Below, piece after piece: positions 4,214 through 37,396 of a DNA stretch of 64,000 nucleotides. Source of the DNA: Anaerolineales bacterium. Lineage in GTDB: Bacteria; Chloroflexota; Anaerolineae; Anaerolineales; E44-bin32. The notes beneath the pieces are model-generated. The model was not told the origin of the DNA. It searched no databases and saw nothing but the letters and a program-made list of their open reading frames with translations. A program made the translations under genes and the position numbers. The stretch is from the NCBI GenBank assembly GCA_034430795.1, contig DAOUDJ010000222.1, positions 5,481 through 69,480 of the forward strand, written 5' to 3'. Every line of letters starts with the position of its first letter. The first letter of the stretch is position 1.

Positions 4214-4239
4214 AAGATCCGAATGGGAGGTTCCATTAA

Positions 4240-19925: not shown

Positions 19926-20857
19926 CTGTCCACCTCTGTTATGAAAACCTGTTTTGCTCCGGCTTTTATCAGAGCGGTTTCAACTTCTTGTGCGGTATCT
20001 AACTCAACAAGTGCGAGCATGATACCGCCCATTCCTGCGCCTGAAAGTTTGGCACCTAAAGCGCCTGATCCGCGGGCTGCTCGAATCAGACGTTGAAGCT
20101 CCCATGAACTAAGACCCATATCTTCCAACAGCGTCTGGTTTCGATTCATCAAAGCCCCCAAAGACACGAGTGAGCCTGTCTCTAGCATTGTACGGGCTTC
20201 TTTCACGATCTCGCCAATTTCTTCGAACCATCCCCCGTATGTCCCTGGGTCTTTTTCCCAGCGCTCACGCAGCAGATTCACCGGTATGGTGGTTCTCATC
20301 GACACGCCTGTGTCCCCAACAATCAGATTTAAAGGAGTGGATATCGAGATAAACTCTGGTTTGTGTTCGCGAATGAAGTAGACCGGTTTTTCGTAGGCGA
20401 CTACGGTATTGTCGATCCCGGAGGGTGTGCCGTGATGGAGGCACTCGACTGCGTAAGCGATCTTGGAGATCGTTTCAACTTCGAGTGGTTTCCCCAAGTG
20501 GTCGCTCAGAGCACGGATGACGGCGACCGAGACGGCCGCGCTTGATCCGAGCCCCGAGGCAATGGGGAGCTGCGAGCGGATGGTTAGATGGACATCTACA
20601 GGCGCTTTCACGCCGAGTTCATCAAGGGTGATGTTTACCGCGGATGCCAATGGGTTTTCCCCATCCGCTTCGTGGAGCCAATAGGACTGGCCGATGTCGG
20701 GTGCGTCGATGAGCACGCCCGTAGTTCCCGGATCGAGGCTTTCAACTTGAACTGTCACACGGATATGGGAAAGAGGGACAGCTATTGCGGGCTGGCCGTA
20801 AACGACCGCATGTTCCCCGAAGAGGATAGCTTTGCCAGAAGCGCTGGCTAGGGTCAT
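19922..20857 (-). CDS. mvk: mevalonate kinase
   Basis: GHMP kinase motifs 'GKAILFGEHAVVYG' and 'PIASGLGSSAAVSVA', plus C-terminal 'KLSGAGMGG'. 4-nt overlaps on both sides. Confidence 0.9.
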   Translation of the reverse strand: MTLASASGKAILFGEHAVVYGQPAIAVPLSHIRVTVQVESLDPGTTGVLIDAPDIGQSYWLHEADGENPLASAVNITLDELGVKAPVDVHLTIRSQLPIASGLGSSAAVSVAVIRALSDHLGKPLEVETISKIAYAVECLHHGTPSGIDNTVVAYEKPVYFIREHKPEFISISTPLNLIVGDTGVSMRTTIPVNLLRERWEKDPGTYGGWFEEIGEIVKEARTMLETGSLVSLGALMNRNQTLLEDMGLSSWELQRLIRAARGSGALGAKLSGAGMGGIMLALVELDTAQEVETALIKAGAKQVFITEVDR

Positions 20858-21774
20858 GGGGAGAAGTATAAGATGGCGACGGCGGTTAAACCCCAGAGTG
20901 CAACCGTGGCCATGAGCGGTTTATCGGATAGAAGGAGTTCTTCCGGAGCGCCGCCTTCGGCTTTAACATGGATAAGAAATAGATAGCGGAAGATTCCATA
21001 AATTACAAAGGGGATCGTCAACATCATCAAGTGATTACCCGGGAGATTCTCTGCGGAGAAGGTATAGAGGGCGTAGGCGAGAATCGTTGTGCTGGAGACA
21101 ATCGAAAGCAAGTGGTCGATGAACGAGAGAGTGTAGCCATCGAGAACGCGTCGATGAGAATTCGCATCGTCCGCTAATAGAACCATCTCTGCGCGCCTCT
21201 TTCCCAAACCCATGAAAAGTGAGATTAGGGTAACGCATACATACATCCAGGGGGAGAAACGCTGAACCGTGATGAGTACTACTCCTGCCGCTACACGGAG
21301 GACAAAGCCGGTGGCGATGACGAGGACGTCGATGATAGGGATGTGTTTGAGGTAGAACGAATATAACAAGTTTAAAACCATATAGGTAAGAAGGATGAGA
21401 CCGAACTTGATTTCGAGCCAGAATCCGAGACCGAGGGCTGTGATCGAGAAGAGAACCGCGGCAATTATAGCGACGTTCTTTGAGAGTTTTCCTGAGGCGA
21501 GCGGGCGCGTTCGCTTCACAGGGTGCTGCCGGTCTTGTTCGATGTCAACGAGGTCGTTGATGAGATAGACTGCACTTGCTCCTAAACAGAATATAAAGAA
21601 CCCTCCAAGGGTTCTAAGGAAGGAAGGCAGGTGTAACAATTTCTGGTCGAAAACAAGTGCTGTGAAGAGAATACCATTCTTGACCCATTGCTTGGGGCGC
21701 ATGGCCTTCAGTAGGTGTCTCATTATGGGCCGCATGATAGCAGGAACATCTGGGAGGGGCAAGAGAGCTATCAC
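20854..21774 (-). CDS. UbiA-family polyprenyl-phosphate phosphoribosyltransferase (DPPR synthase, Rv3806c-like)
   Basis: 'LLKAMRPKQWVKNG', 'AVYLINDLVDIEQDRQHPVKRTRPLASG' and 'GKRRAEM' parallel M. tuberculosis Rv3806c ('LVKAMRPRQWVKN', 'NDVRDVEADREHPTKRFRPIAAG', 'GKRYAEL'). The start may be an internal Met. Confidence 0.8.
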   Translation of the reverse strand: MIALLPLPDVPAIMRPIMRHLLKAMRPKQWVKNGILFTALVFDQKLLHLPSFLRTLGGFFIFCLGASAVYLINDLVDIEQDRQHPVKRTRPLASGKLSKNVAIIAAVLFSITALGLGFWLEIKFGLILLTYMVLNLLYSFYLKHIPIIDVLVIATGFVLRVAAGVVLITVQRFSPWMYVCVTLISLFMGLGKRRAEMVLLADDANSHRRVLDGYTLSFIDHLLSIVSSTTILAYALYTFSAENLPGNHLMMLTIPFVIYGIFRYLFLIHVKAEGGAPEELLLSDKPLMATVALWGLTAVAILYFSP

Positions 21775-22615: not shown

Positions 22616-22761
22616 AATGGAACCTGTGAATAATTACGAGGTTGATGTTCTCATACCTTTTGTAAAGGGAGGATCTCTGAAGATGGACGAAATGGTTCAA
22701 GCGCGGTTTTTGCGTACGAATGACGGTGCTGGAATTGTCAACAGGGTATAATCCCCGCCTG

Positions 22762-23772
22762 ATGCCAATGTCACGAAACTCGCGTAGATTTCTTGTCCTC
22801 CTTTTGGGAATACTCATCAGCGCTGCAGCGCTGTACCTAGTCCTACGTTGGGCTGGCTGGGAAGCCCTTCTCGCCGCGTTAAAACGGATGGACGTGCGCT
22901 TCTTGCTTCTTGCGGTTGTTGTTTATCTGATTTCTATGCTAGCGCGTGCGGCAGCATGGCAAACAATACTGAATCATAAGTATGGTTTCGGTCGAGTACT
23001 GGCCGCGTTGAATGAAGGCTATCTTCTAAATAACGTTCTCCCGTGGCGCCTCGGTGAGGTGGGACGCGCTGTTCTGCTCGGTCGACGATCGGGAGGATCG
23101 ATCTTATCGGTTCTTTCCTCGATCCTTGTTGAACGATTATTTGATCTCGCGCTTGCCTTAGGTTTGCTCTTCGCACTGTTGCCTCTTGTTGCCGGAATTC
23201 CGAACGTACCACGCACCGGATCGACGATCGCCATTGTCCTGATCTTTATCATTGCTGTTCTATGGCTTCTTGTCCGCAAGCCTGTATGGATAGAAAGCGT
23301 CCTCTGCCGGCTTCCCGGGGGTGGAAAGCGGTGGATGCCCGCCTGGGAACGCGTCCGGCAAGGCTTGCAGGCGCTTCAAGATCCTCGCGTGCTTTTTACG
23401 AGTCTTGGTTGGATGGTGCTCACGTGGGCTCTCGCCGGAGTAGAGTATTGGTTGGTCTTAAAAGCCCTTATCCCCGAAGCGGAATGGACCTGGGCGTTCT
23501 TCATGTTAACGATAACATTGCTCGGTGGAGCCATCCCTTCATCGCCGGGTTATTTTGGCGTGTTTGAGGCAGCAGGAGTATTGGCGCTCGCCGCGTTTGA
23601 TGTTCCGAAAGCGGAAGCCCTGGCCGTCTCGCTTACCATTCATGGAATGGTTTTTTCAATAGGATCTCTCTTCGGCCTTATAGCTTTGCTCAATGAAGGT
23701 GAGACGATCTCAGGGTTGTACCAGGATATCCGCAGGTGGCTCTCCTCTGGCTCGAATCAGCAAGCGGGTTAA
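22762..23772 (+). CDS. UPF0104 / LPG_synthase_TM (MprF flippase-domain-like) membrane protein
   Basis: 'LNEGYLLNNVLPWRLGEVGRAVLL' and an 8-TM layout match the lysyl-PG synthase TM-region family. Start is ATG 22762 or 22768 (the ORF is open from 22720). Confidence 0.78.
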   Translation: MPMSRNSRRFLVLLLGILISAAALYLVLRWAGWEALLAALKRMDVRFLLLAVVVYLISMLARAAAWQTILNHKYGFGRVLAALNEGYLLNNVLPWRLGEVGRAVLLGRRSGGSILSVLSSILVERLFDLALALGLLFALLPLVAGIPNVPRTGSTIAIVLIFIIAVLWLLVRKPVWIESVLCRLPGGGKRWMPAWERVRQGLQALQDPRVLFTSLGWMVLTWALAGVEYWLVLKALIPEAEWTWAFFMLTITLLGGAIPSSPGYFGVFEAAGVLALAAFDVPKAEALAVSLTIHGMVFSIGSLFGLIALLNEGETISGLYQDIRRWLSSGSNQQAG

Positions 23773-24927
23773 ATGCGCATACTGAACACGCTCTATTATT
23801 ATCGCCCTCATTTTTCCGGTCTGACGGTCTACACGGAACGTCTGGCGCGAATGCTTGTTTCTCAAGGGCACCAGGTGACGGTGTTAACATCGCAATACGA
23901 GCGGTCCCTTCGGCTGGTTGAAAAAATGGACGGCGTGGATGTAAAGCGAGTGCCCGTTGCGTTTAATGTCAGCAAGGGTCCGATCATGCCAACTTTCCTC
24001 TATCAGGCTGCGCGTTTGATCCCTGAGCATGACATCCTCCACCTGCACGTCCCGCAGCTCGAGGCAGCGCCTCTTTCGCTGCTTGGGCGCGCCTTTGGCA
24101 AACCTGTGGTGCTAACCTACCACTGCGATCTCATGCTGCCTCCCTCGTTGTTGAACGCGCTTGCAAACCGAATTTCAGATCTGGCGAATTCGATTTCGAC
24201 GAAAACCGCAAGTGCGATTGTTGTAAACTCGCGGGATTATGCGGAAGAATCACCGCTTTTGAGTAAAAGGCTCGAGAAAGTCGAAGTTATTCCGCCTCCA
24301 ATCGAGATGCCTGAACCGGATCCTATGGTCGTCCTATCTATGCGGAAGCGCTTCAAGATTGCCCCGGGGAGTCCGGTTATTGGAATGGCTGCACGTCTAG
24401 CGACAGAGAAAGGGGCCGAGGTGCTTGCTCAGGCGATGACGATCGTTCTCAAAGAAATGCCGAGCGCCCGCGTTTTTTATGTCGGTCAGCATGAAAATGT
24501 AATGGGCGAGGAGGCATATCGTGCCCGGCTTCTTCCGCAGATCGAGGCGCTTGGTGACCATTGGACTTTCTTGGGAATTCTCCAGCAGAGTGAGTTTGCG
24601 GCTTTCTTTAAGCTGTGTGATGTTACTGTGCTCCCCAGTTTGAACAGCACGGAGAGTTTCGGGATGGTTCAGGTCGAATCGATGCTCTCGGGAACCCCGG
24701 TTGTGGCCAGCGACCTCCCTGGGGTCCGGCAGCCTACTCAGACAACGGGTATGGGTTTAACATTCCCTCCAGGGGATGCGGACAAGCTTGCCGCCGCGCT
24801 TCTCCAGGTCCTTAGGAATCCTGCGGATTACACAAGCGACCGTGCCAGCGTTATGGCCCAATACTCAAGCGAAGTCGTATCGGCGAAGTATGAAACCATC
24901 TTTGCCAATATAATTTCGAAAGTGTAA
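23773..24927 (+). CDS. GT4-family (GT-B, retaining) glycosyltransferase
   Basis: 'MRILNTLYYYRPHFSGLTVYTERLA' N-terminus. EX7E region 'ESFGMVQVESMLSGTPVVASDLPG'. ATG directly abuts the upstream TAA. Confidence 0.88.
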   Translation: MRILNTLYYYRPHFSGLTVYTERLARMLVSQGHQVTVLTSQYERSLRLVEKMDGVDVKRVPVAFNVSKGPIMPTFLYQAARLIPEHDILHLHVPQLEAAPLSLLGRAFGKPVVLTYHCDLMLPPSLLNALANRISDLANSISTKTASAIVVNSRDYAEESPLLSKRLEKVEVIPPPIEMPEPDPMVVLSMRKRFKIAPGSPVIGMAARLATEKGAEVLAQAMTIVLKEMPSARVFYVGQHENVMGEEAYRARLLPQIEALGDHWTFLGILQQSEFAAFFKLCDVTVLPSLNSTESFGMVQVESMLSGTPVVASDLPGVRQPTQTTGMGLTFPPGDADKLAAALLQVLRNPADYTSDRASVMAQYSSEVVSAKYETIFANIISKV

Positions 24928-24940
24928 ATCTCAACAATAA

Positions 24941-25723
24941 ATGACGAAAGATTATTTTTGGCTGCATCTGCGTGATCTACCCTACTTTCGGGCACTTCTG
25001 CGTTCGATTGAAGCCGGCTACTACAAAGACCTGGATCTCCCATCACCGACTCTCGATGTGGGTTGTGGGGATGGACATTTCACAACGATCGCCTTCGATC
25101 GCCCAATTGAGATCGGCGTCGACCCTGATCTACCGATCATGCGCGAAGCTAAATCACGCCATGCGTATGATCTCCTTCTGCAAGCAGATGGGGCACGCAT
25201 GCCGCTCCCGGACCATTCAATCGCTTCGGCTTTCAGCAATTCGGTGCTCGAGCACATACCGCATCTTGACGCGGTTCTGCGAGATGTGGGTCGGGTGTTA
25301 AAGTCTGGCGCACCATTTGTGTTCACGGTGCCCAACCCGGGCTATCGTACGCAGCTGAGCCTCCCACGCAAGCTCTCTAAGGCAGGACTTTCGGCTCTGG
25401 GGAAGGCGTATGAAAGTTGGTTCATGCGCATGTCGCGAACGATAAACCTCGACGATGAGGGGGGTTGGGAACGGCGATTATCGGCAGCCGGTTTCACGAT
25501 CGAGCGAACCTTCCGCTACTTTCCACCGTCCTCCCTCCATGTTCTGGAGTGGGGGCATTACTTAGGTGGACCCTGCTTGCTCCCGCATAAACTATTCGGC
25601 AAGTGGATTCTCGCCCCTTATCGTTGGAATCTCGGTTTGACGGATAGGCTGGTGCGGCGATACTATGATACGTCGCCGACAGAAGACGGAACCTATAGCT
25701 TTTATCTGGTGCGTAAACGATGA
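24941..25723 (+). CDS. class I SAM-dependent methyltransferase
   Basis: Motif I 'LDVGCGDGHFT' and post-I/II 'ASAFSNSVLEHIP' (Methyltransf_11-like). Confidence 0.85.
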   Translation: MTKDYFWLHLRDLPYFRALLRSIEAGYYKDLDLPSPTLDVGCGDGHFTTIAFDRPIEIGVDPDLPIMREAKSRHAYDLLLQADGARMPLPDHSIASAFSNSVLEHIPHLDAVLRDVGRVLKSGAPFVFTVPNPGYRTQLSLPRKLSKAGLSALGKAYESWFMRMSRTINLDDEGGWERRLSAAGFTIERTFRYFPPSSLHVLEWGHYLGGPCLLPHKLFGKWILAPYRWNLGLTDRLVRRYYDTSPTEDGTYSFYLVRKR

Positions 25724-27933
25724 CCTCACCTGAGTCTGAACCTCTCATAAAACCCGAATCCGATCCGCCAGACGCACAGGAACCAAGCGTCCTGGATTGG
25801 TTGAAATCGCTGGTTCGTGGGCATCCGATCCCCATTCCCGAAGGACCCGTAGAGAGCGCAATCGATGATCTGCCAATGCAGGCGGTGGACGAGGAGCCTC
25901 AGCAAGAGGCGATCCTATCAACCTTCCGTTTTGAGGCATCTCAATTTCGGTTGCCGGTGGCGTTACTGCTAGCGCTTGCAGCGCAATTTGGTCTGGAACG
26001 TCGAGAAGGTTCGATTTGGATCAGTATTGTTCTGTACATCCTGGCTGGTGTGGTTATCGCTTGGGGGACTTGGTCAAAGGATTTCTTCTATAAAACACCT
26101 CCTACCTCAGACGAGAGGGTCAGTCCCGTCACCTATCGTCCGGCATTATTGTCTGCAGCACTTATTCTTTCTCTGCTTACATTCATCAGCTCTGGAAATA
26201 ACCTCTTCGATTTTCCGACCGTGGTCTTCTGGACCGCTTCTATCATCACCATCCTGTTGGCATTCTGGGATGGTGAATTCCCTCTGGTGAGCTGGTGGAG
26301 AAGGTTAAAGAGTTGGTTAGGTGACCCCAATCTGCATTTATCGCTTTCTGGCTGGGATCTTCTGGTTCTTGCCGGTTTCAGTCTTTCGGTCTACTTCCGG
26401 TTCTATCTCCTCGATTCGGTTCCACCGGAGATGGTCAGCGATCACGCTGAGAAATTGCTGGATGTCGTCGATGTGCTCAATGGAAAATACTCGATCTTTT
26501 TCCCGAGGAACACCGGGCGTGAGGCTATGCAGTTTTACATGGCTGCGGCGACGTACAAATGGTTAGGCACGGAGATCTCCTATCTCACCTTGAAAATCGG
26601 CACAGCCCTGGCCGGGGTTCTTACCTTACCTTTCATTTATCTCCTCGGTAAAGAAGTTGGGGGGAAGCGAGTTGGTCTCGCGGCTATGATTCTGGCGGGG
26701 ATCGCTTATTGGCCGAATGTGATAAGCCGGGTGGGGCTGCGGTTTCCGCTTTACCCCTTGTTCGTCGCTCCGGCTTTTTATTACCTGGCCAGAGGAATCC
26801 GTACTCGCAATCGGAATGATTTCCTGCTTTGTGGGTTGGTTGTTGGTATGGGACTTCATGGGTATAGCCCGGCGCGAGTAATCCCTATCGCCATCGCCGT
26901 GGGTATTAGCCTGTATCTTCTGCACAAGGGTTCGCAAGAACAGCGCCGGGTGATGATCACGCTGCTCGTAATCACAGGTCTCGTCGCTCTGATTGTGTTT
27001 ATGCCCCTGGTGCGAATTGCGGTAGATCGCCCGGATGAGGTGATCTACAGGATGACCACGCGCTTTGGGAGCGCCGAGCGGGATTTGCCAGGACCTGCAT
27101 TACAGATTTTCTTTTCAAATGTCTGGAACGGCTTGAAGATGTTCACCTGGGATAATGGCGAGGTATGGGTGAACTCCATCCCGCACCGTCCAGCGTTGGA
27201 TTGGGTCACTGGTGCTCTGTTCTCTCTTGGAGTGGTCATTGCATTGACCCGCTTTGTACGCTACCGGCGCTGGATCGATTTGTTCATTCTCGTCTCGATC
27301 CCCATCCTCCAGCTTCCATCAACGCTATCGCTTGCGTTTCCGGCCGAGAACCCAGCTACCAATCGGGCTGCGGGGGCGATCGTGCCTGCTTTCATCCTTG
27401 CTGGCTTGGCGTTTGCGGCAATTCCGGATTGGATCGAAACCCATTGGAAAGGACGCCAAACGGCCGGCTTCAGCCTAGTGTTCACCGGGTTGCTTTTATT
27501 AATAGCGGGTCGATTGAATTACCACCTCGTTTTTAAGGAATATCAAGATCTATATCGCCGGTCCGCATGGAATACGTCTGAGGCAGGCGCCGTGATTCGG
27601 AACTTTGCTGAATCGATCGGCTCCTATGAAACCGCGCATGTTGTCGCCTACCCTCATTGGGTGGATACACGACTTGTTGGGATAAACGCCGGTCAACCCA
27701 CCAAGGACTATGCCATTTCCGAGGAGGGCTTAGCGGATACGATCTTCGAAACCCGACCACAGCTCTTCCTGCTCCACCCGGATGATGTAGAGTCCTTACA
27801 GAAACTCAAAGAGCTCTACCCATTTGCACGGGTTACAGAGTACCCAAATATCATCGAGGGGAAGAATTTTATAATTTTTTCTGTTCCTTTCGCACCTGAA
27901 ACTCTACCAGAAGCGATCCGGGAATCCGAGTGA
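25720..27933 (+). CDS. GT-C-like (GT39/PMT_2-like) polytopic membrane glycosyltransferase, 737 aa
   Basis: ATGA overlap with the methyltransferase gene. Acidic cytoplasmic N-tail, then many TMs. 'FFPRNTGREAMQFYM...ALAGVLTLPFIYLLGKEVGGKRVGLAAMILAGIAYW' resembles ArnT/PMT_2-type GT-C cores. Confidence 0.7.
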   Translation: MTSPESEPLIKPESDPPDAQEPSVLDWLKSLVRGHPIPIPEGPVESAIDDLPMQAVDEEPQQEAILSTFRFEASQFRLPVALLLALAAQFGLERREGSIWISIVLYILAGVVIAWGTWSKDFFYKTPPTSDERVSPVTYRPALLSAALILSLLTFISSGNNLFDFPTVVFWTASIITILLAFWDGEFPLVSWWRRLKSWLGDPNLHLSLSGWDLLVLAGFSLSVYFRFYLLDSVPPEMVSDHAEKLLDVVDVLNGKYSIFFPRNTGREAMQFYMAAATYKWLGTEISYLTLKIGTALAGVLTLPFIYLLGKEVGGKRVGLAAMILAGIAYWPNVISRVGLRFPLYPLFVAPAFYYLARGIRTRNRNDFLLCGLVVGMGLHGYSPARVIPIAIAVGISLYLLHKGSQEQRRVMITLLVITGLVALIVFMPLVRIAVDRPDEVIYRMTTRFGSAERDLPGPALQIFFSNVWNGLKMFTWDNGEVWVNSIPHRPALDWVTGALFSLGVVIALTRFVRYRRWIDLFILVSIPILQLPSTLSLAFPAENPATNRAAGAIVPAFILAGLAFAAIPDWIETHWKGRQTAGFSLVFTGLLLLIAGRLNYHLVFKEYQDLYRRSAWNTSEAGAVIRNFAESIGSYETAHVVAYPHWVDTRLVGINAGQPTKDYAISEEGLADTIFETRPQLFLLHPDDVESLQKLKELYPFARVTEYPNIIEGKNFIIFSVPFAPETLPEAIRESE

Positions 27934-30900
27934 TTATGGCTGAAGTTGAAGCACCCATCGATCAACAACATGAGCCGCCTGAAAAAGAAAGATCCAGGGT
28001 TCTTTCGGATCTTACTGTTGGGATTCTTCTTATCGCGGTTCTCGGTCTGGCTGCGTACCTGCGTTTCACCGGCTTGAATTGGGATTCTCACACCCATCTC
28101 CACCCGGATGAACGCTTTCTTACGATGGTTGAGACCTCGATCCAACTTCCGCAGTCGATCGGGGAATATTTCAGCACCGAGACATCCCCTCTCAATCCGC
28201 ATAACGTTGGGCATGGCTTCTTCGTCTATGGTTCACTCCCGATCTTCCTCGTCCGCTATCTCGCTGAATGGACCGGGATGTCTGGCTATGACCAGGTACA
28301 TCTTCTAGGGAGGGCTGTTTCGGGAATATCCGATCTTGTATCGATCCTTCTGATATACCTGATCGGGGAAAGACTCTTCAATCGTCGGGTCGGGATTCTG
28401 GCAGCGCTGTTTACAGCCCTTTCGGTTTTGTTGATTCAACATGCGCATTTCTTCGTCGTCGACCCACTCGCCAATGTCTTTATCCTCGCCGGACTATATT
28501 TCTCGGTTCGAGTTATCGGCCAGGGGAAGCTCAGTGACTATCTTCTTTTCGGGGTCATGCTGGGGCTGGCGGTGGCCTCCAAAATCAGCGCTGCCCCTCT
28601 GGCGGTTGCTGTAGCGCTTGCTGGACTCACGAATATCCTTAGCGCCCCCTCGGATCAAAGGTCTGCTGTTTTCTCACGCACACTCACTTTCTTACTCGGC
28701 GCAGCGCTCCTGTCACTTCTTGTCTTCCGTATTTTCCAACCTTACGCTTTTGAAGGGCCGGGCTTCCTTGACGTGAGGTTCAACCCGAAGTGGCTGGCGA
28801 ATATGGCGGAGGTCCGAAGCCAGCAGGCAGGGAACACCGATGCTCCTTATGCGCTTCAGTGGGCTAATCGCGCGCCGGTCTTTTTCTCATTGAAAAATAT
28901 GATTTTATGGGGAATGGGCATACCGCTCGCGATCCTGGGCTGGATCGGTTTGGGCTGGGCTCTTGTCGAGATGATCCGCGGACGGTGGGAGCGGTATTTG
29001 ATCCCGGTGGTCTGGACAGCCGGCATGTTCATCTGGCAGTCGATCAATTTCACCAAGGCGATGCGCTACCAGCTGCCTGTTTATCCGACACTGGCATTAC
29101 TGGCAGCCTGGGTACTCTGGCATGTATGGGAGAGTGTCCCGCAGCTCAACGCCCAATGGCGAAAGGCAGCCCGAATCGGTGTGTTGTTGGTTGGATCAAT
29201 CACCATCCTGGGGACAGCTTTGTGGGCATATGCCTTCCACTCGATATACTCGGAGCCACTCACCCGGGTATCCGCATCGCGATGGATTTACAGGAATGTT
29301 CCGGCTGTCGTTAATCTGGTTGTAGAAGCAGACGGGGAAACGTTTTACGAGACAATCCCCATGCCCATACCCTATGATCTAAGCTCCGGTGACACCTATA
29401 CAACGGAGATCTCCACAGACGTCGCCGGAGTTATCAGCAGCGTTCTTCTACCCTATGTCTCGACGAATGATGGTAAGGACGGCATCCTGGGTCTTTCTGT
29501 AACGCTTGCAGATGAGCCAAACGCCGGATCCATATATGCGCGCGGGGAATTCCGCAGCGATGTACTCGCGGGCGAAGAAGCTCGGGTTGAAATCCAACTC
29601 GATCGATCCTTTAATATCGACCCAGATACTCGTCTGTTCCTGATTCTCGAGAATATCGGTGAGCCATCCCTGCATATGCGCCCATCTCTCCTGGTGCATG
29701 AAACTACCTGGGATGATGGCCTGCCGTGGGGGGTGGATGGCCGAGGGCTTGGCGGCAGATATGAGGTGCACAATCTTGAACTTTATTGGCACGATAACCA
29801 GGACGATGATGATAACGGAATCCCCGATAAGTTAGAGAGGATCGTGCAGTATTTGGAGCAGGGGGATTATCTTATGATCTCCTCTAACCGCCAGTATGGA
29901 ACGATCCCCCGCGTTCCAATCCGCTACCCACTTACTGCTGCCTATTACCGTGAGCTTTTCGGCTGCCCTGATGGAATGGATGTTCCCACGTGTGGTGCGA
30001 CCGCAGAGGTGGGATTGTACGCGGGCCGCTTAGGGTATTCACTCGTTGAGGTTTTTGAAAGTCACCCCTCAATTGGGGCGCTGAAAATCAACGATCAGTT
30101 CGCGGAAGAAGCCTTTACAGTCTATGACCATCCGAAGGTGTTGATCTTTAAGCGGGATGCAGATTTCAGCGCGGAAAAGGTCTTTGACTTTCTTTCCCAG
30201 GTCGACGTGAGCGGCGTCGTCCATGTGCTGCCAAAGGATGCCGGCGATACAGGGCAGGACTTACTGCTCTCGGCGGATAAATGGCAGAAACAGCAGGAGG
30301 AGGGCACCTGGTCAGAGATCTTCAACACAGAGAGCATCGTTAACCGCTCGGGATTGTTGAGCGCCATCCTCTGGTGGGTGGCGTTGGGTATTCTGGGTCT
30401 TCTGGTTTATCCCATAACGAGGGTCGTCTTCCGCAGCTTCCATGATGGCGGTTATGCGCTCTCGCGGTTGATTGGGCTGCTGCTATTCTCTTGGGGCGCT
30501 TGGATCTTCGGGAGCCTTGGGGTCACAGTCAGCCGCTTGACGCTCAGCATTGTGCTGCTGCTGCTCGCGGGTATTTCCTTCACCCTAGCATTGCGTGACC
30601 GAGAAGAACTTTCTACATTCTTCCGGACGCAATGGCGAGATATCCTTTGGGTAGAGGTTTTTGCGCTCAGTTTTTTCCTCGTGGATCTCGGGATTCGATA
30701 CGGGAACCCTGATTTATGGCATCCAGCAAAGGGTGGGGAGAAGCCGATGGACTTCTCCTATCTAAACGCCGTAATTAAGAGCTCAACCTTCCCTCCTTAT
30801 GATCCCTGGTTCGCTGGGGGGTATATCAACTACTACTACTACGGTTTCGTCCTCGTCGGAATGCCGGTGAAATTGCTGGGCATCGTCCCGGCGACAGCCT

Positions 30901-32897
30901 ACAATCTCATTATCCCAACGCTCTTCTCGATCCTGGCATTGTGCGCGTACAGCATGGGCTACCATCTTGTACGTTCGATTTCTCATAATATGTCTCTTCG
31001 CGTTAGGGCCAATCCCAAATTGGCGGGTCTCATCGCCGCGCTCCTGCTTGTGGTTTTTGGAAATCTGGGCACGGCCAGGATGTTCTATGATGGTTTCAAA
31101 CAGGTTGGCACCCCGGCAGGGGTTGAAGAGGGGAGCTTCATTGTTGGGGCGGGTCAAGCAGCCAAGGGATTTGTAAACTATCTGACGTACAAGTCTCCGC
31201 TTCCCTACCCGATGGACCAATGGTATTGGAACCCGAGCCGGATGATTACCCCCGGTGAGGGTGAGCCAGGGCCAATCACAGAATTCCCCTTCTTCACTTT
31301 CCTGTACGCTGATCTGCATGCTCACATGATCAGCCGCTCACTCACAATCCTTAGCCTGGCGTGGGGTTTATCGTGGATTCTTTCCGTTTCCCAGCGTCGC
31401 CGTCGAGGGAAAATCGACATCGCCCTGGCGTTGTTTGTGGGCGGTTTAACGCTTGGCGCGCTGCGACCTATTAACACATGGGATTTTCCCGTGTATTGGG
31501 TATTAGGAGTACTTGCAGTCCTCTACGCTGTGTGGTGGCGCGATCGAAAATTTGATCTACCACAAATTGCAGAAGCAGGTCTATATGCCATCCTGCTTTT
31601 AGCATTTTCGCAGTTCCTTTATCAACCGTACCATCAGTGGTACGGGCAGGGATATTTGTCCGCAGAGATCTGGAAGGGGTCTCTGACGTCCATGATTGAT
31701 TATCTGACGGTGCATGGAGTCTTCCTCTTCCTGATTGCAGCCTGGATGGTATGGGAAACTCGCGAGTGGATGGCCCAAACTCCGATTTCAGAACTGAACC
31801 GGCTGCGGCCGATTGCGACGTGGATTGGATCTGCGGCTTTCCTCATTGTGGCAGTTACCGCCTGGCTTGCGGGTATTGGATATCAGATTGCACTGATCGT
31901 CATCCCTCTCGGCGCTTGGGCGATGATACTGCTGCTGCGACCAGATCTTGCCTTAGGCAAGCGGATCGTGCTTTTCATCGTAGGAACTGGGCTGGTTCTT
32001 ACGTTTGTCGTGGAGGTCGTGGTACTCAAGGGGGATATCGGTCGCATGAACACGGTCTTCAAATTCTACCTCCAGGTGTGGGAGCTCTTCAGCCTGGCTG
32101 CAGCTGCAGCTCTCGCATGGACGTACACCTCACTTCCGAAATGGGATCGCGTATGGCGGTGGGGCTGGCTGACGGCAACGGTTTTGCTTTTATTCTCTGC
32201 CGCGTTGTATCCCCTCACGGCATCTATATCGAAAGTCCGGGATCGGATGACGGTAACCGCGCCGCGGACGCTCGACGGCATGCTCTATATGGATTACGCC
32301 GTCCGCTTCGAATTGGGCGAGAAACTATCCTTGGGAGAGGATTATCAAGCGATTCGTTGGATGCAGGAAAATGTCGAGGGTTCACCGGTTATCGTTGAAG
32401 CGAATATTCCTGAGTATCGTTGGGGTTCGCGTTATTCGATCTACACCGGACTCCCGGGTGTCCTGGGATGGCGCTGGCATCAAACCCAGCAGCGCGTCGC
32501 CGCGGAAAACACTGAGACGGACGAACGGCTATTCCAAATAACAAATTTCTACCTCACACGAACGATCGCAGAAGCGAAAGAATTCCTCGCTGAATATAAT
32601 GTTAAGTATGTCGTCGTCGGCGAGCTGGAACGCGCTTATTACGCCGAGGTCTATCCGTGCTGGCCGGATGCGAGTGTACCGGGCATATCCTGTGATCTGC
32701 GCGGTTGGCCGCTGGGCATGCCGACATCGTTCCCGATCTCGCCTGACGAATGTGAACTGGAACACCCCGAGGATGAAACCTCGAGCCTGCGCTGCCCGAC
32801 ACATGCTCTGGATAAATTCCCCGCCATGGAATCTGAAGGAAGTCTCCTCGCCGTCTTCCAGGATGGGAAAACGGTGATCTATGAGGTTGTAAAGTGA
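27930..32897 (+). CDS. 1655-aa fusion: N-terminal GT-C (TIGR03663/PMT_2-like, 'HPDERF') module + soluble domain + C-terminal DUF2298 'Chlor_Arch_YYY' module
   Basis: GTGA overlap upstream. 'HPDERF' lies in the first loop (28101-28118). 'EKPMDFSYLNAVIKSSTFPPYDPWFAGGYINYYYYG' (30738-30845). The C-terminal half is paralogous to the next gene. Confidence 0.8.
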   Translation: MIMAEVEAPIDQQHEPPEKERSRVLSDLTVGILLIAVLGLAAYLRFTGLNWDSHTHLHPDERFLTMVETSIQLPQSIGEYFSTETSPLNPHNVGHGFFVYGSLPIFLVRYLAEWTGMSGYDQVHLLGRAVSGISDLVSILLIYLIGERLFNRRVGILAALFTALSVLLIQHAHFFVVDPLANVFILAGLYFSVRVIGQGKLSDYLLFGVMLGLAVASKISAAPLAVAVALAGLTNILSAPSDQRSAVFSRTLTFLLGAALLSLLVFRIFQPYAFEGPGFLDVRFNPKWLANMAEVRSQQAGNTDAPYALQWANRAPVFFSLKNMILWGMGIPLAILGWIGLGWALVEMIRGRWERYLIPVVWTAGMFIWQSINFTKAMRYQLPVYPTLALLAAWVLWHVWESVPQLNAQWRKAARIGVLLVGSITILGTALWAYAFHSIYSEPLTRVSASRWIYRNVPAVVNLVVEADGETFYETIPMPIPYDLSSGDTYTTEISTDVAGVISSVLLPYVSTNDGKDGILGLSVTLADEPNAGSIYARGEFRSDVLAGEEARVEIQLDRSFNIDPDTRLFLILENIGEPSLHMRPSLLVHETTWDDGLPWGVDGRGLGGRYEVHNLELYWHDNQDDDDNGIPDKLERIVQYLEQGDYLMISSNRQYGTIPRVPIRYPLTAAYYRELFGCPDGMDVPTCGATAEVGLYAGRLGYSLVEVFESHPSIGALKINDQFAEEAFTVYDHPKVLIFKRDADFSAEKVFDFLSQVDVSGVVHVLPKDAGDTGQDLLLSADKWQKQQEEGTWSEIFNTESIVNRSGLLSAILWWVALGILGLLVYPITRVVFRSFHDGGYALSRLIGLLLFSWGAWIFGSLGVTVSRLTLSIVLLLLAGISFTLALRDREELSTFFRTQWRDILWVEVFALSFFLVDLGIRYGNPDLWHPAKGGEKPMDFSYLNAVIKSSTFPPYDPWFAGGYINYYYYGFVLVGMPVKLLGIVPATAYNLIIPTLFSILALCAYSMGYHLVRSISHNMSLRVRANPKLAGLIAALLLVVFGNLGTARMFYDGFKQVGTPAGVEEGSFIVGAGQAAKGFVNYLTYKSPLPYPMDQWYWNPSRMITPGEGEPGPITEFPFFTFLYADLHAHMISRSLTILSLAWGLSWILSVSQRRRRGKIDIALALFVGGLTLGALRPINTWDFPVYWVLGVLAVLYAVWWRDRKFDLPQIAEAGLYAILLLAFSQFLYQPYHQWYGQGYLSAEIWKGSLTSMIDYLTVHGVFLFLIAAWMVWETREWMAQTPISELNRLRPIATWIGSAAFLIVAVTAWLAGIGYQIALIVIPLGAWAMILLLRPDLALGKRIVLFIVGTGLVLTFVVEVVVLKGDIGRMNTVFKFYLQVWELFSLAAAAALAWTYTSLPKWDRVWRWGWLTATVLLLFSAALYPLTASISKVRDRMTVTAPRTLDGMLYMDYAVRFELGEKLSLGEDYQAIRWMQENVEGSPVIVEANIPEYRWGSRYSIYTGLPGVLGWRWHQTQQRVAAENTETDERLFQITNFYLTRTIAEAKEFLAEYNVKYVVVGELERAYYAEVYPCWPDASVPGISCDLRGWPLGMPTSFPISPDECELEHPEDETSSLRCPTHALDKFPAMESEGSLLAVFQDGKTVIYEVVK

Positions 32898-35542
32898 TCC
32901 AAGACGTCTTCACCTGGTGGTTGATAAGCACGTTGGTAGGCGCTATGGCGCTGCCAATTGCATGGCGGATCTTCGGACGGCTCGAGGACCGCGGTTATGG
33001 TTTCGCCAGGGCTCTAGGGCTGCTCTTGACCGGATATATTTTCTGGATGGGAGCCACGCTGCGGCTTTTCCAACCGAGCCTTGGTGGAGCGGTGATGGCG
33101 CTTCTTGCGCTCTTGGTGTTGAGCGTCTGGATTGGTCGTAGCACGTGGCGCGATGTTCTTGATTGGCTCAAAGAACACCGTTCCACAGTTCTAATCATGG
33201 AGATCCTTTTCCTGCTCGCGTTCTTGGCTTGGGCGTTTGTGCGGGCGAACAACCCGGAAATCACCGGAACAGAAAAACCGATGGAGCTCGCGTTCCTAAA
33301 TTCGATTCTGCGCTCAGACAGCTTCCCACCTCACGATCCATGGCTCTCGGGCTATGCGATCTCCTATTATTACTTCGGCTATATACTTCTGGCCTTGCTC
33401 ACTCGGCTCACGGGCGTTGCCTCTGGGGTCGCCTTCAATCTTGGGAATAGTCTCTGGTTTGCGCTGGTCGCCTTGGGCACATACTCTCTCGCATATAATT
33501 TCCTCTCCCGACGGACGCCCGGACGTGTTAAACGATTTTCACCGCTTCTTGCGCCGCTCTTCGTCTTGATCAGCGGAAATTTAGGAGCCTTCCTCGAGGT
33601 CCTTTATTCAAAATACATCTTCTGGACGACGACCACCACCGGTGTTTTTTTGACGTCGCCGTTCTGGACCTGGATTGGACTTGAGGATCTGGAAAAACCG
33701 CCCTCGCTCTTGCTCGAAGCGAGTTGGATGCCGCAACGATACTTGTGGTGGTGGCGTTCATCACGCGTGATCAGGGATCTCGACCTCAATGGTCTTCCAC
33801 TCGGATTACAGTCGATCGACGAATTCCCGTTCTTCACTTTCCTGCTTGCAGACAATCACCCCCACCTTTTAGCGATGCCCTTCGTACTCATGGTAATCGC
33901 ATTCGCTTTCCAGGTTTTCCTCCAGGGACAGCGGACACCTCTTCGTTTGGGAGAGGTGAAGTGGACTCACAGCCTGCGTAAAAATCTGTTAATTGCCCTG
34001 GGTTTGGTATTGGCGATCGTCGTGGTCGTCCTGGGAATGAAAGCCGGAGCGGCAGATCTGGGGATATCCGCGGCATTCATTTCAATTATTAAAGGTATCG
34101 TGACAAGCGGGATTATATTTGGGGCTATGCTTCTTGTCGGGGCGATCGCAGGCGGCTTGCTCCCATCTTCTCTCAATAAGCTCGAATTCTGGTTCGGAGC
34201 ATGGCTCTTCGGGGCGCTGGCTTTCTTGAATACCTGGGATTTCCCGATTTATTTCATCTTGCTCTTCTGTGTGATGATCTGGAGGAGTCGTACGCTCCCG
34301 CTTACAGTTTGGGTTAAATCGGTGCTCACGACGAGCTTCGCATTCATCGTAGCTGCCATCCTGCTTTATATTCCCTGGTATCCATCGTTCTCATCACAGG
34401 CAGGCGGTATCCTGCCGCACTTGATGCATCCCACTCGTTTTCTCCATTTCTTCATCATGTTCGCGGTCTTGTTCATCCCTTTGACTGTCTGGCTTATCAT
34501 GCGAGTGATGCAGGGGAGAAGGCGATCGGAGGGGAAGTGGCTTTTCGGAATAAGCCTGGGATTCCCGCTCGCACTCTTGATCCTCTCGTGGCTTTTCGCA
34601 GCAATGATTTACCTCGTGGGTGCAAACGTCATCGGAATGGGGGCGATCCTCAGCAGCATGGGGATGGACAGCCTCCGCGATGCCGCTCGAGCGACAATCA
34701 CTATCCGATTAACGCAGTCGTGGACAGCGATCGGCTTGGGCGTGATGATCGCCGCCACCGTTGTGCTCATCAGACGTGTATGGAAAGACTCTCCGAGCGA
34801 TACCAAACCAGGTCCTTTCATTCTTATGATGATCACGATTGGGGCGCTCTTGATACTTGGTCCTGAGTTTTTCTATCTCAAAGACCAATTCGGGCTGCGC
34901 ATGAATACGATTTTTAAATTCTACTTTGCTGCCTGGGTCTTTTGGGGCCTTGCCGCAGCATACGTGATGGATGTGATCTGGTCCAAACGGAGTGCGAAGA
35001 TGATCCCCGTGCAGATACTCACGGTTCTCCCATTGCTTGCCGGGCTCATGTATCCTGCCCTATCCGTGTGGACGAAAACAAACGGCTTAAACCCGGTCCA
35101 TGGCCGAACGTTGAATGGAGCTTTGCACCCTGCCTACGCGAGCGAAGCGGATCGTGACGCGATCCAATGGATGAGCGATAATTTGGATGTCGGGGTTGTT
35201 GCGGAAGCCGTCGGTGGTAGTTATTCGTACTTTGCGAGAGTATCTGTGCATACGGGATTCCCGACCATTATCGGTTGGCCTGGTCATGAAAGCCAGTGGC
35301 GCGGCGGATACCAGTACCACGGAACGCGGGAAGAGGATGTCAGGACACTGTATAAGTCGCCAGATTGGGAACAAACTCAAGAGATACTGAAAACCTATAA
35401 TGTGAAGTATGTATACATTGGAGAACTTGAGCGAATGGCATACCCACCCATCTTTGATGGAAAATTTGATGCATTCATGGAACTGGTTTACCAAAACGAC
35501 AGGGTTAAAATCTACGCTAGAAGAGCAGGTGACTCCTCTTGA
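32894..35542 (+). CDS. DUF2298 / 'Chlor_Arch_YYY' domain membrane protein, 882 aa
   Basis: GTGA overlap upstream. 'TEKPMELAFLNSILRSDSFPPHDPWLSGYAISYYYFG' (33272-33379). The C-terminal soluble domain 'GFPTIIGWPGHESQWRG...YNVKYVYIGELER' parallels that of the 1655-aa protein. Confidence 0.8.
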   Translation: MIQDVFTWWLISTLVGAMALPIAWRIFGRLEDRGYGFARALGLLLTGYIFWMGATLRLFQPSLGGAVMALLALLVLSVWIGRSTWRDVLDWLKEHRSTVLIMEILFLLAFLAWAFVRANNPEITGTEKPMELAFLNSILRSDSFPPHDPWLSGYAISYYYFGYILLALLTRLTGVASGVAFNLGNSLWFALVALGTYSLAYNFLSRRTPGRVKRFSPLLAPLFVLISGNLGAFLEVLYSKYIFWTTTTTGVFLTSPFWTWIGLEDLEKPPSLLLEASWMPQRYLWWWRSSRVIRDLDLNGLPLGLQSIDEFPFFTFLLADNHPHLLAMPFVLMVIAFAFQVFLQGQRTPLRLGEVKWTHSLRKNLLIALGLVLAIVVVVLGMKAGAADLGISAAFISIIKGIVTSGIIFGAMLLVGAIAGGLLPSSLNKLEFWFGAWLFGALAFLNTWDFPIYFILLFCVMIWRSRTLPLTVWVKSVLTTSFAFIVAAILLYIPWYPSFSSQAGGILPHLMHPTRFLHFFIMFAVLFIPLTVWLIMRVMQGRRRSEGKWLFGISLGFPLALLILSWLFAAMIYLVGANVIGMGAILSSMGMDSLRDAARATITIRLTQSWTAIGLGVMIAATVVLIRRVWKDSPSDTKPGPFILMMITIGALLILGPEFFYLKDQFGLRMNTIFKFYFAAWVFWGLAAAYVMDVIWSKRSAKMIPVQILTVLPLLAGLMYPALSVWTKTNGLNPVHGRTLNGALHPAYASEADRDAIQWMSDNLDVGVVAEAVGGSYSYFARVSVHTGFPTIIGWPGHESQWRGGYQYHGTREEDVRTLYKSPDWEQTQEILKTYNVKYVYIGELERMAYPPIFDGKFDAFMELVYQNDRVKIYARRAGDSS

Positions 35543-37308
35543 ATAATCATCGGAGCATCAGGCTGGATACTGTAATGCTCGCAATCTTGGTCGCGTTGAT
35601 TGCATGGACGCGGATTGCAGACTTAGGCAGGATTCCACTCACCGATACTGAAGCAGTTCATGCCCTTACAGCAGCATCGACGACTCCGGATGCTTCCCCC
35701 TTTTGGGATATGGATGGCGTGGCGGCACCGGTAAGTGCGAGCTATTACGTCTTCACCACCATGATCTTCCAACTCTTTGGTCCAACCGATGCAGCGGCGC
35801 GTATCGTTTCAGCGCTTGCCGGCATCGTGCTGGTTTTGAGCCCGTTGGTCCTGCGGAAACGAATTGGCACAGCCCGTTCGCTGATAGCAGTTCTGGTGCT
35901 GGCCATCGCCACGTCTGGTTGGACGAGCGCAAGAACCGCCGGCGGCTCAACTCTAGCAGCTGCGGGTCTGGCGGTCTTCGTATTCCTCGCCTGGTCGTCG
36001 GACACAGCTGACGATAAACGGGTTCGGCTTCTGCTCGCGGCAGGCGCGCTTGGCTTCGCGTTTGCGTCAGGACCGACCATCGTCCAAGGTTTGTTCGGTC
36101 TGCTGGTTGGATTCGGCCTGTCACGCCTGCTTGCATCCCGGCATCGGAAACCATTTGAAGAATTTATACGTTTAATTGCAGTTAAATCTAGCCTTTGGGT
36201 TTCTCTTGTTGTGATGCTCCTTGTCGCCTCAGGCGCTGGTTTCTATTGGAATGGACTTGCCGGGTTGGGCGAATCCCTTACGCAATGGCTGCAAGGCTGG
36301 ACAGGGCCGGGTCTACATTCAGCAATTGCCTATGTCGTGATGCTCGTGAGTTATGAGCCTTTGTTTGTAGGGATTGGGCTCGTTGGAGCGGTTCTCGCCT
36401 GGTGGCGCAAAGATTCTCTCGGGCAGGCAGCCAGCCTATGGGTATTGGGCAGCCTGTTCAGCGGCCTTGTTTATCCTGCACGGGGTGCGGCGGATTTGAT
36501 CTTTGTGGTCCTTCCTTTAGCCCTTCTGGTATCTTATACCGTCTCGATTTTGATTGAACGAATTGCCCGCCGTCGCGTCGGACTCGAATTAGTAGGTCTT
36601 GCCAGTGTGCTCCTGGTGCTGACAGCTTCTGCCTGGATATCGCTTGCCGGCTACGCAAATGGTTACATCTTGGAGTACACACCGACCGACCCGGGGCTAA
36701 TCCTGCTTGTATTTAGCGCATTGATTATTATGGCGGTTAGCCTACTTTTATTCTTTGGCTTGGGATGGTCCTGGGATGTTGTGGCCGATGTGCTTGGGAT
36801 TACGGCTACGCTTGTGCTGGCAGCGATCACGCTCTCTGCAGCGTGGCGCTTGAATTTCGCGGCTCTTTCAACAGGCGCCAGGGAGATCTGGCGTCCTGAG
36901 GTAACTACGACTGGGATGCGGCTGCTCACGAATACACTCGATAATGCCTCACTCGCCTTCGCGGGCCGAAAAGATGAGATCGCTGTCGAGGTGCAATCTG
37001 AGGTCAACCCAGCACTGGCGTGGGCGCTGCGCGGTTACAATCGAGCGGGAGGTGAAATCAACTTACTTGTAGATCCCTCCCCGGCGGTCCTCGCTTTGGA
37101 GTCAAATTCTGCTACCAGTTTACTTACCGACTATATGGGCCAGGGGATGGCTTTGAAGGAGCGGCGTGATTGGGAAGGCAGTCTACCGCCGAATTTGCTG
37201 CGTTGGTTTGTGCTCCGCTCGGCGCCTACGGAATTCGAGCGTTGGATTCTCTGGGTGCGGATGGATATCGCCACTCTCGGCGATGTGGGGTTGTCCGATA
37301 TTGAATAA
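35539..37308 (+). CDS. polytopic GT-C-like membrane protein, 589 aa
   Basis: TTGA overlap upstream (alternative ATG at 35575). First loop 'RIPLTDTEAVHALTA' followed by 'FGPTDAAARIVSALAGIVLVL', the usual GT-C/PMT_2 N-terminal pattern. Soluble C-terminal domain. Confidence 0.6.
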   Translation: MNNHRSIRLDTVMLAILVALIAWTRIADLGRIPLTDTEAVHALTAASTTPDASPFWDMDGVAAPVSASYYVFTTMIFQLFGPTDAAARIVSALAGIVLVLSPLVLRKRIGTARSLIAVLVLAIATSGWTSARTAGGSTLAAAGLAVFVFLAWSSDTADDKRVRLLLAAGALGFAFASGPTIVQGLFGLLVGFGLSRLLASRHRKPFEEFIRLIAVKSSLWVSLVVMLLVASGAGFYWNGLAGLGESLTQWLQGWTGPGLHSAIAYVVMLVSYEPLFVGIGLVGAVLAWWRKDSLGQAASLWVLGSLFSGLVYPARGAADLIFVVLPLALLVSYTVSILIERIARRRVGLELVGLASVLLVLTASAWISLAGYANGYILEYTPTDPGLILLVFSALIIMAVSLLLFFGLGWSWDVVADVLGITATLVLAAITLSAAWRLNFAALSTGAREIWRPEVTTTGMRLLTNTLDNASLAFAGRKDEIAVEVQSEVNPALAWALRGYNRAGGEINLLVDPSPAVLALESNSATSLLTDYMGQGMALKERRDWEGSLPPNLLRWFVLRSAPTEFERWILWVRMDIATLGDVGLSDIE

Positions 37309-37396
37309 CGAGGATGTAGAGGTTGAGCCTGTTCCACTCTCAACTGTATATTCAGTTGTTAGGCAACAGCCAGCTATAGAGCAAGGAGATTGTCCA

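Follow-up and report, generated by a model that had tools for sequence, protein, structure and literature searches.

Introduction

DUF2298 (TIGR03662) is a large family of membrane proteins from the Chloroflexota and reportedly some Archaea, and it is described as co-occurring with the family TIGR03663. Among the glycosyltransferases of the GT-C type, the mycobacterial Emb and Aft enzymes have extracytoplasmic sugar-binding domains, use polyprenyl-phosphate sugars and act successively on one polymer, and EmbA-EmbB and Pmt1-Pmt2 are known cases in which two GT-C enzymes work as a pair on one polymer. The PMT-like protein Agl23 (TIGR03663) is reported to flip lipid-linked glycans (PMC11182771). 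Three-component systems of extracytoplasmic pentofuranosylation combine a synthase of the lipid-linked donor with a MATE flippase and with a GT136 enzyme of the GT-C type that has a C-terminal carbohydrate-binding module (CBM) (PMC11127046). In the literature, no paper was found on the architecture presented below, and searches on tandem GT-C fusions and on the Anaerolineae envelope brought up no functional study. Here, we describe a gene of an Anaerolineales bacterium that lies at positions 27930..32897 on the + strand of a 64,000-nucleotide stretch of DNA (the window; GenBank assembly GCA_034430795.1, contig DAOUDJ010000222.1, positions 5,481 to 69,480) and encodes a PMT_2-type module (the N-module) fused to a DUF2298 module in a single chain of 1655 amino acids (aa).

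A Fusion of Two GT-C-Type Modules

This Anaerolineae membrane protein is one polypeptide that joins two different GT-C-type modules, and it is very probably a genuine bifunctional GT-C fusion. An earlier note, made from the letters of the window alone, had claimed a 1655-aa open reading frame (ORF) that contains two complete GT-C modules, and both points hold: the ORF is single, uninterrupted and 1655 codons long, and the AlphaFold2 (AF2) models of its two halves retrieve only GT-C enzymes from the PDB at E<1e-3 in Foldseek searches. On the full protein, Pfam matches PMT_2 (residues 128-265, 9e-14) and DUF2298 (residues 852-1387, 7e-114). The AF2 models were built from alignments of 68-69 sequences. 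For the N-terminal half (residues 1-800; predicted local distance difference test, pLDDT, 89.3; predicted TM-score, pTM, 0.87) there are 36 matches at E<=1e-3, GT-C enzymes without exception, including AglB, STT3, Pmt4, ArnT, EmbA/B/C, ALG9/12 and PglB (E 1e-8 to 1e-4), and the fold also matches Pmt1/2. For the C-terminal half (residues 790-1655; pLDDT 89.7, pTM 0.91) the only matches at E<=1e-3 are AglB (1e-6), AftA (1.6e-5, 6.6e-5) and PglB (7e-4). Sequence searches against the PDB, with the single protein as well as with a family profile, gave nothing useful. The possibility that the two modules are duplicates at the sequence level was rejected, since the similarity found by hhalign is limited to 11 residues that are common to the overlapping fragments.

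The fusion is found in many genomes. Among about 5.8 billion protein clusters searched, at least 120 share the PF13231+PF10060 architecture; these are 1615-1872 aa long and 47-91% identical, and nearly all of the named ones derive from metagenome-assembled genomes of Anaerolineales/Chloroflexota. The closest homologs (88-91% identical) are labelled Anaerolineales bacterium, and the names in the databases are automatic ones, such as 'DUF2298 domain-containing', 'YYY domain-containing', 'glycosyltransferase family 39' and 'phospholipid carrier-dependent glycosyltransferase'. When one genome per GTDB species was scanned with the N-module alignment, at least 556 genomes proved to have a relative, some of them labelled as relatives of Anaerolinea, Leptolinea or Thermoflexus, and orthologs were counted in the best 80 of these, using our own ORF caller and hidden Markov models (HMMs) of both halves. 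A complete uninterrupted ORF with both modules, 1573-1831 aa in length, is present in 68 of these 80 genomes, at identities of about 35-90%, the lowest (about 35%) being found in Thermoflexus. None of the species-level genomes analysed has a split at the module junction. Broken copies occur in loci L015, L076 and L081, where the fusion is divided into 2-5 overlapping ORFs with breaks elsewhere than at the junction, which suggests sequencing frameshifts or pseudogenes. A survey of fused versus split homologs, which the earlier note had named as a check, thus finds the fusion conserved in 68 species-level genomes, and the fused state is the rule in this lineage, not the exception. Two contigs with other taxonomic labels also carry an Anaerolineae-type fusion, one labelled Methanosarcinales archaeon (L005, JAIWHF010000015.1; N-module 88% identical to that of the window) and one labelled Thermodesulfobacteriota (L072, CAYNVA010000197.1); both are probably mis-binned.

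The GTG start of the fusion ORF overlaps the TGA stop of the upstream gene, which encodes a protein of 737 aa. The true start is probably the ATG at 27936, two codons downstream of the GTG, because homologs conserve Met3, the closest of them have 1653 aa and the upstream TGA ends at 27933. At the other end, the TGA stop of the fusion gene overlaps the GTG start of a gene for an 882-aa DUF2298 protein. Given these stop/start overlaps on both sides, the 737-aa gene, the fusion gene and the 882-aa gene appear to be translationally coupled.

Domain Architecture and Candidate Active Sites

The N-module is a PMT_2/PMT-type GT-C membrane domain (residues 1-456; 27930..29297, + strand) with about 11 transmembrane helices, its N-terminus inside and its C-terminus outside as judged from the helices of the AF2 model and from where Lys and Arg residues lie. 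The description as PMT_2-like in the earlier note is confirmed by Pfam, in which PMT_2 (PF13231) scores 52-55 bits (gathering threshold 26.1) and PMT (PF02366) 28.9 bits on residues 1-457 (gathering threshold 22.7). The label TIGR03663 (a family now called 'flippase activity-associated protein Agl23'), given there as well, fails: the N-module scores 18.3 bits (E 1e-3) against a cut-off of 126.25, and the full fusion protein has no NCBIfam match to this model at E<=0.01. Membership in the Agl23 family was rejected, the weak match covering residues 126-277 and not the DE/HGP loop. With at least 1475 clusters at 50% identity (E<=1e-30), the N-module is a separate subfamily within the PMT_2/PMT-type GT-C enzymes. 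The motif HPDERF, which the earlier note had located in the first loop, indeed follows the first transmembrane helix in the first extracytoplasmic loop (residues 58-63; 28101..28118, + strand), and the other motifs quoted in that note are all present in the ORF. Residues H58, P59, D60 and E61 are invariant in all 68 fused orthologs and also in stand-alone N-modules, and D60-E61 is the candidate catalytic pair, corresponding to a PMT-like DE motif.

The DUF2298 or 'YYY' membrane domain spans residues 808-1437 (30351..32240, + strand) according to Pfam, TIGR03662, the AF2 model and Foldseek. The C-terminal half matches DUF2298 (PF10060) with 381.9 bits over model positions 1-488 of 488, and it matches TIGR03662 (Chlor_Arch_YYY) with 524.4 bits against a cut-off of 300.25 (residues 810-1572; model positions 3-700 of 727). 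The YYYxG motif that marks this family is found as NYYYYG at residues 967-972, after the early transmembrane helices. As the earlier note had supposed, this half resembles the product of the next gene: it is homologous to the 882-aa protein along its whole length, and pairwise alignment (BLASTP) gives 29% and 26% identity with E-values of 2e-32 and 2e-26, far beyond chance. The motifs GGEKPMD (935-941), PPYDPW (955-960) and NYYYYG (967-972; together 30732..30842, + strand) contain invariant residues and form an extracytoplasmic loop that is the candidate active site of the module. All 68 fused orthologs have E937, D958 and Y968-970, and so do 57 paralogs encoded downstream, apart from one in which Y970 is not kept; R1104, E1118, D1128, H1130, H1132, N1182, R1372, N1374 and K1378 are likewise invariant among the orthologs. 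Conserved acidic residues in a predicted external loop, a criterion for GT-C enzymes, are therefore found in both modules (D60/E61 in 68/68; E937/D958 in 68/68 and in 57/57 paralogs). In the 57 paralogs the conserved positions of the DUF2298 module are invariant or nearly so, while paralogs and fusions differ systematically at positions 936 (G/T), 941 (D/E), 965 (Y/A) and 967 (N/S). Taken together, the shared invariant residues and the systematic differences suggest the same or a related chemistry with a different specificity.

Behind this membrane domain follow an extracytoplasmic globular domain (residues 1438-1572) and a Cys-rich tail (1573-1655) with four conserved Cys (together 32241..32894, + strand), delimited by Foldseek and conservation. 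The globular domain contains the motif GWRWHQTQQR (residues 1513-1522), in which H1517, Q1520 and R1522 are invariant in the 68 fused orthologs and W1514 is kept in 67. It matches the isolated AglB globular domain (3vu0/3vgp) in Foldseek with E 0.02-0.2 and a probability of 0.89-1.0. Pfam assigns no family to the C-terminal domain, and the only NCBIfam match is to the TIGR03662 model. Neither module has a Pfam match to the STT3 family, and archaeo_STT3 of NCBIfam is not significant (9.7 bits against a cut-off of 450). The motif WWDYG, by which STT3, AglB and PglB are recognised, was not found in the C-terminal domain, where GWRWHQ stands instead. Judged from the models, the likeness to STT3, AglB and PglB is structural only.

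Between the modules, residues of about 460-790 are soluble in the AF2 model, in agreement with the stretch of about 450-790 given in the earlier note; neither Pfam (residues 441-800) nor NCBIfam (residues 458-800) finds a family in this region. Its first part is an extracytoplasmic beta-sandwich (residues 461-615; 29310..29774, + strand), defined by the AF2 strands, which possibly binds carbohydrate or glycan: Foldseek relates it weakly to CBM11 and CBM22 (E about 0.01), and a profile search relates it, again weakly, to the hyaluronate lyase entry 4d0q (E 0.15). The sandwich is duplicated in tandem in orthologs of 1770-1800 aa (L001, L002, L042, L045, L054, L056, L063 and others), in which N-module positions of about 460-585 match twice. 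The second part is an alpha/beta domain (residues 633-760; 29826..30209, + strand), with the invariant residues C679 and C688 and a YDH motif at residues 732-734. It is followed by the inter-module linker (residues 761-807; 30210..30350, + strand), which has a low pLDDT and was recognised by its conservation among orthologs; of its GTW motif (792-794), G792 is kept in 62 and W794 in 60 of the 68 orthologs.

The topology was derived from the DSSP helices of the AF2 models together with the distribution of Lys and Arg (K/R), counting of transmembrane helices by hydropathy alone being too crude. The N-terminus is predicted to be cytoplasmic; the first transmembrane helix covers residues 17-46 and is followed by the external loop with D60-E61. 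Short K/R-rich loops alternate along the chain on the cytoplasmic side (RLFNRR, RVIGQGK, loop 238-250, RGRWERY, loop 406-415), which leads to 11 transmembrane helices in the N-module and places residues 460-790 outside. In the second module, an even number of helices is needed before the EKPMD loop for this loop to be external, and four are found (808-833, 842-862, 869-889, 902-925), the K/R-rich connections between them being cytoplasmic. The two candidate catalytic loops would thus face outward, as would the two soluble domains, and this placement agrees with the invariant pair C679/C688 and with the four Cys conserved in the C-terminal tail. An independent check is provided by the 2315-aa protein P0196 (L085, 299-7246), which consists of a PMT_2 module, an extra helix, the N-module and DUF2298: the extra hydrophobic helix, followed by a K/R-rich stretch, lies between the first PMT_2 module and the N-module and is exactly what the topology requires to return the chain to the cytoplasm.

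Separate and Multiple Fusions

The earlier note had also stated that the modules occur as separate genes elsewhere, and this is the case. The 150 best of the N-module cluster representatives (50% identity) comprise 85 complete fusions of both modules, 31 truncated fusions, 22 whole N-modules without DUF2298, about 15 of which end within 10 residues of the soluble domain, and 12 shorter N-module fragments. A stand-alone N-module was verified in L003, and about 15 further representatives appear to be of the same kind; in L003 it is preceded by a 678-aa GT4~methyltransferase fusion (L003 2420-4456) and followed by prfA, and there is no adjacent DUF2298 gene. The stand-alone form of DUF2298 is the 882-aa gene that adjoins the fusion.

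Besides the double fusion and the triple fusion P0196, there are two further triple fusions, P0200 and P0243 (2434 and 2445 aa), in which the N-module and DUF2298 are followed by a second DUF2298 of the paralog type (EK[TM]ME); these two have no beta-sandwich. P0200 lies in the same operon context as the fusion of the window (L084, 8001-15305). Neighbouring genes of this operon are therefore fused in at least four different combinations. Recurrent fusion of the same neighbouring genes, together with the conserved synteny described below, makes a stronger 'Rosetta stone' case for a cooperation of the modules and strengthens the views that they work together and that, as the earlier note had supposed, they may act one after the other on a single substrate.

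Operon and Genomic Context

The fusion gene is part of an operon that has 4-nucleotide overlaps between neighbouring genes and runs, all on the + strand, in the following order: a flippase-like LPG_synthase_TM/TIGR00374 protein (22720-23772), a GT4 glycosyltransferase (23773-24927), an S-adenosylmethionine-dependent (SAM) methyltransferase (24941-25723), a PMT_2-type GT-C protein of 737 aa with a conserved SDHAEK loop (25720..27933), the fusion, the 882-aa DUF2298 paralog (32894..35542) and an Agl23-like polytopic protein of 589 aa (35539..37308); a cytidylate kinase gene lies downstream of the latter. Synteny was scored in 79 species loci (one of the 80 had no ORF call for the N-module), and the counts are lower bounds: the flippase-like gene was found in 37, the GT4 gene in 55, the methyltransferase gene in 49, the 737-aa PMT_2 gene in 63 and the Agl23-like gene in 48 of the 79 loci. 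Of the 68 genomes with a complete fusion, 57 have the DUF2298 paralog immediately behind it. Conservation of the operon extends to relatives of about 35-50% identity, and at about 50% (L001, L002 and L084) the gene order is unchanged.

By hhalign, the 737-aa PMT_2 protein matches the N-module with 97% probability and the 589-aa protein with 91% probability, so that the latter is PMT_2-like by profile comparison. The 589-aa protein scores 29 bits with TIGR03663, below the cut-off yet better than the N-module, and is a candidate lipid-sugar flippase. In total, the operon has five GT-C-type modules, three PMT_2-like and two DUF2298. An ORF of 219 aa (37166-37825, + strand) shares about 140 nucleotides with the 3' end of the Agl23-like gene; with no family match and no homolog in the related loci, it is unlikely to be a real gene.

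Divergent from the glycosylation operon, on the - strand, lies an operon of genes for isopentenyl phosphate kinase, mevalonate kinase and a UbiA-family protein (19152-21774). The first of these matches the archaeal-type isopentenyl phosphate kinase equivalog with 157 bits (cut-off 120), and the UbiA-family protein (20854..21774, - strand), whose gene adjoins the two kinase genes, matches the decaprenyl-phosphate phosphoribosyltransferase model NF008977 with 267 bits (cut-off 234). The gene content suggests an archaeal-type mevalonate route with a synthase of lipid-linked phosphoribose, and the UbiA gene is reminiscent of the lipid-linked pentofuranose donors described elsewhere (PMC11127046).

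Elsewhere in the window, a second GT4 gene (55366-57576, + strand) with a strong match to the 'GT4-conflict' model lies outside the main operon, with genes for an EamA transporter and a HAD-type hydrolase as its neighbours. Several ORFs of 240-420 aa at 910-5829, 12739-13728 and 16837-18105 have no Pfam family at E<=1e-5 (1e-3 for 16837-18105).

Proposed Function and Alternative Explanations

The conserved operon probably builds a cell-surface glycan. The explanation of the whole that we favour, with moderate confidence, is that a common glycan outside the membrane is extended by both modules of the fusion in turn, each using sugars linked to polyprenyl phosphate. The analysis shows the ORF, the identity and folds of its domains, the conserved residues, the synteny and the recurrent fusions; catalysis by both modules, a lipid-linked donor, a glycan acceptor and sequential action are what we infer from the sequences and models. 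The chain would start in the cytoplasm and cross the membrane about 11 times as the PMT_2/PMT-like module, with Asp60-Glu61 in the first external loop. It would then emerge as the beta-sandwich, which may hold the acceptor, and the alpha/beta domain, re-enter the membrane as the DUF2298 'YYY' module, expose the EKPMD...D...YYY loop on the outside after four helices and end in the external AglB-like globular domain. In consecutive steps, the two modules would each take a sugar from a polyprenyl-phosphate-sugar donor and attach it to one growing glycan, and the product may be a wall polysaccharide or a lipoglycan of the Anaerolineae. The cytoplasmic GT4 enzyme and the methyltransferase may prime the acceptor or modify it, outward movement of lipid-linked intermediates may fall to the flippase-like and Agl23-like proteins, and the separate PMT_2 and DUF2298 enzymes may add further steps. 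This scheme of sequential transfer is modelled by analogy on EmbA-EmbB, the Aft enzymes and GT-C enzymes with a CBM.

Several points weigh against such a reading. Family scans of the window ORFs found no GT2-type polyprenyl-phosphate-sugar synthase. The UbiA gene, the one candidate for donor synthesis nearby, may supply a lipid-linked pentose donor, but it lies within the 8-kb flank in 14 of the 79 loci, all from close relatives, and at the edge of the flank; it is kept as a weak lead because it is syntenic in close relatives only and because of this position. The TM-scores of the Foldseek matches are modest (0.3-0.5), and the matches that relate the beta-sandwich to CBMs are weak (E about 0.01-0.15). 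In some genomes, such as L003, the N-module occurs without a fused DUF2298, and coupling is not obligatory. Finally, no paper on the function or biochemistry of DUF2298 was found in the literature.

A bolder and rather doubtful extension of sequential transfer is that the DUF2298 'YYY' family is an unrecognised catalytic GT-C family with an AglB-like C-terminal domain and, in the Anaerolineae, part of a multi-GT-C assembly line that builds a lineage-specific envelope polymer on the outside of the membrane, as a Chloroflexota counterpart of mycobacterial arabinan and lipoglycan synthesis. DUF2298 would here be tethered, covalently or genetically, to PMT_2-type enzymes, with up to three GT-C modules per chain, and lipid-linked pentofuranose donors would be possible.

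The same folds could also serve protein glycosylation, in which the PMT-like N-module would O-glycosylate secreted or S-layer proteins and the DUF2298 module would act like an oligosaccharyltransferase on protein acceptors. This would account for the presence of AglB, STT3, PglB and protein O-mannosyltransferases among the best PDB matches, for the PMT score of the N-module above the Pfam threshold and for the resemblance of the C-terminal domain to the AglB globular domain; in addition, DUF2298 and Agl23-like genes co-occur, and Agl23 is known from archaeal glycosylation pathways (PMC11182771). It is nevertheless unlikely, given that there is neither an STT3 family match by sequence nor a WWDYG motif, and no MIR domain. 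Five GT-C-type modules and a possible CBM-like sandwich look more like polymer building, as by the mycobacterial Emb and Aft enzymes, and AftA is a better match to the DUF2298 module than the oligosaccharyltransferases are (TM-score normalised to the target 0.52 versus 0.32-0.35).

It is quite improbable that only one module is catalytic and that the other serves as a scaffold, as a chaperone that binds acceptor or donor, or as a translocator of lipid-linked sugars. A translocator role has been proposed for Agl23 despite its GT-C likeness (PMC11182771), the 589-aa Agl23-like neighbour is PMT_2-like by profile yet has few invariant residues, and GT-C pseudo-enzymes are conceivable. The fusion, however, has strictly invariant constellations of acidic and polar residues in both external loops at about 35-90% identity, as is typical of active sites; the N-module retains the PMT-type DE pair, and the stand-alone paralog conserves the DUF2298 residues to the same degree. 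The conservation pattern fits two active enzymes and argues against one module being a dead scaffold.

That an assembly or frameshift artefact merged two adjacent genes has practically no chance of being correct and is effectively excluded at the family level: a single indel could merge genes that overlap by 4 nucleotides, but the continuous ORF, with its conserved linker motif, recurs in 68 independent species-level assemblies and in at least 120 protein clusters, and the three broken loci are interrupted at positions other than the junction.

Comparison With Known Systems

DUF2298 becomes the subject of a concrete and testable hypothesis, namely that it is a lipid-sugar-dependent glycosyltransferase that works with PMT_2-type enzymes; this is based on its GT-C fold and AglB-like C-terminal domain, its invariant polar residues in an external loop, its repeated fusion to PMT_2-type enzymes and the neighbourhood of its genes to those for PMT_2-type, flippase-like and Agl23-like proteins. 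The double and triple fusions predict physical hetero-complexes of these GT-C enzymes, and for structural work the fusion is handy, as a single chain stands in for several subunits. Judging from the conserved operon, the Anaerolineae, an abundant and poorly studied group, would have an envelope glycan that has not yet been described.

AglB, PglB and STT3 are the top Foldseek matches of both modules, and the fusion has an AglB-like C-terminal globular domain, but it lacks an STT3 HMM match and WWDYG, and the TM-scores are only 0.3-0.45. The archaeal flippase candidate Agl23 (TIGR03663) is weakly matched by the downstream 589-aa gene, which is near a DUF2298 gene, whereas the N-module of the fusion has no qualifying score. 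The three-component system of pentofuranosylation (PMC11127046) follows the same logic of a donor synthase, a flippase and a GT-C enzyme with a CBM, the last acting outside the membrane; it has a MATE flippase and a single GT136 enzyme, whereas the locus described here has five GT-C-type modules and other candidate flippases. In this comparison no MATE transporter was found, while the gene resembling UbiA/DPPR synthase scores above its cut-off and is syntenic in only 14 of the 79 loci.

The PMT_2 and PMT enzymes (GT83/GT39-like; ArnT, protein O-mannosyltransferases) resemble the N-module in Pfam scores, DE pair and fold, but the N-module has no MIR domain and has its own C-terminal region of beta-sandwich and alpha/beta domain. 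The mycobacterial EmbA-EmbB, EmbC, AftA and AftD are similar in that AftA and Emb are among the structural matches and a gene like that for DPPR synthase (UbiA family) is nearby. They differ from the fusion in that its pairing is covalent and not by dimerisation and in that PDB sequence searches show no homology at the sequence level; in addition, the window showed no epimerase of the DprE1/E2 type, and the UbiA gene is only weakly linked to the operon. The architecture as such is already abundant in databases under automatic names and its parts come from known superfamilies. The arrangement, a covalent hetero-tandem of GT-C modules, will not be very surprising to a specialist, but it offers a way into the large DUF2298 family and into an envelope glycan of the Anaerolineae. 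With the DUF2298/TIGR03662 family itself, the C-terminal half shares the YYY loop and the full family length, a stand-alone paralog adjoining, and the difference is that DUF2298 is here fused behind a PMT_2-type module and two soluble domains.

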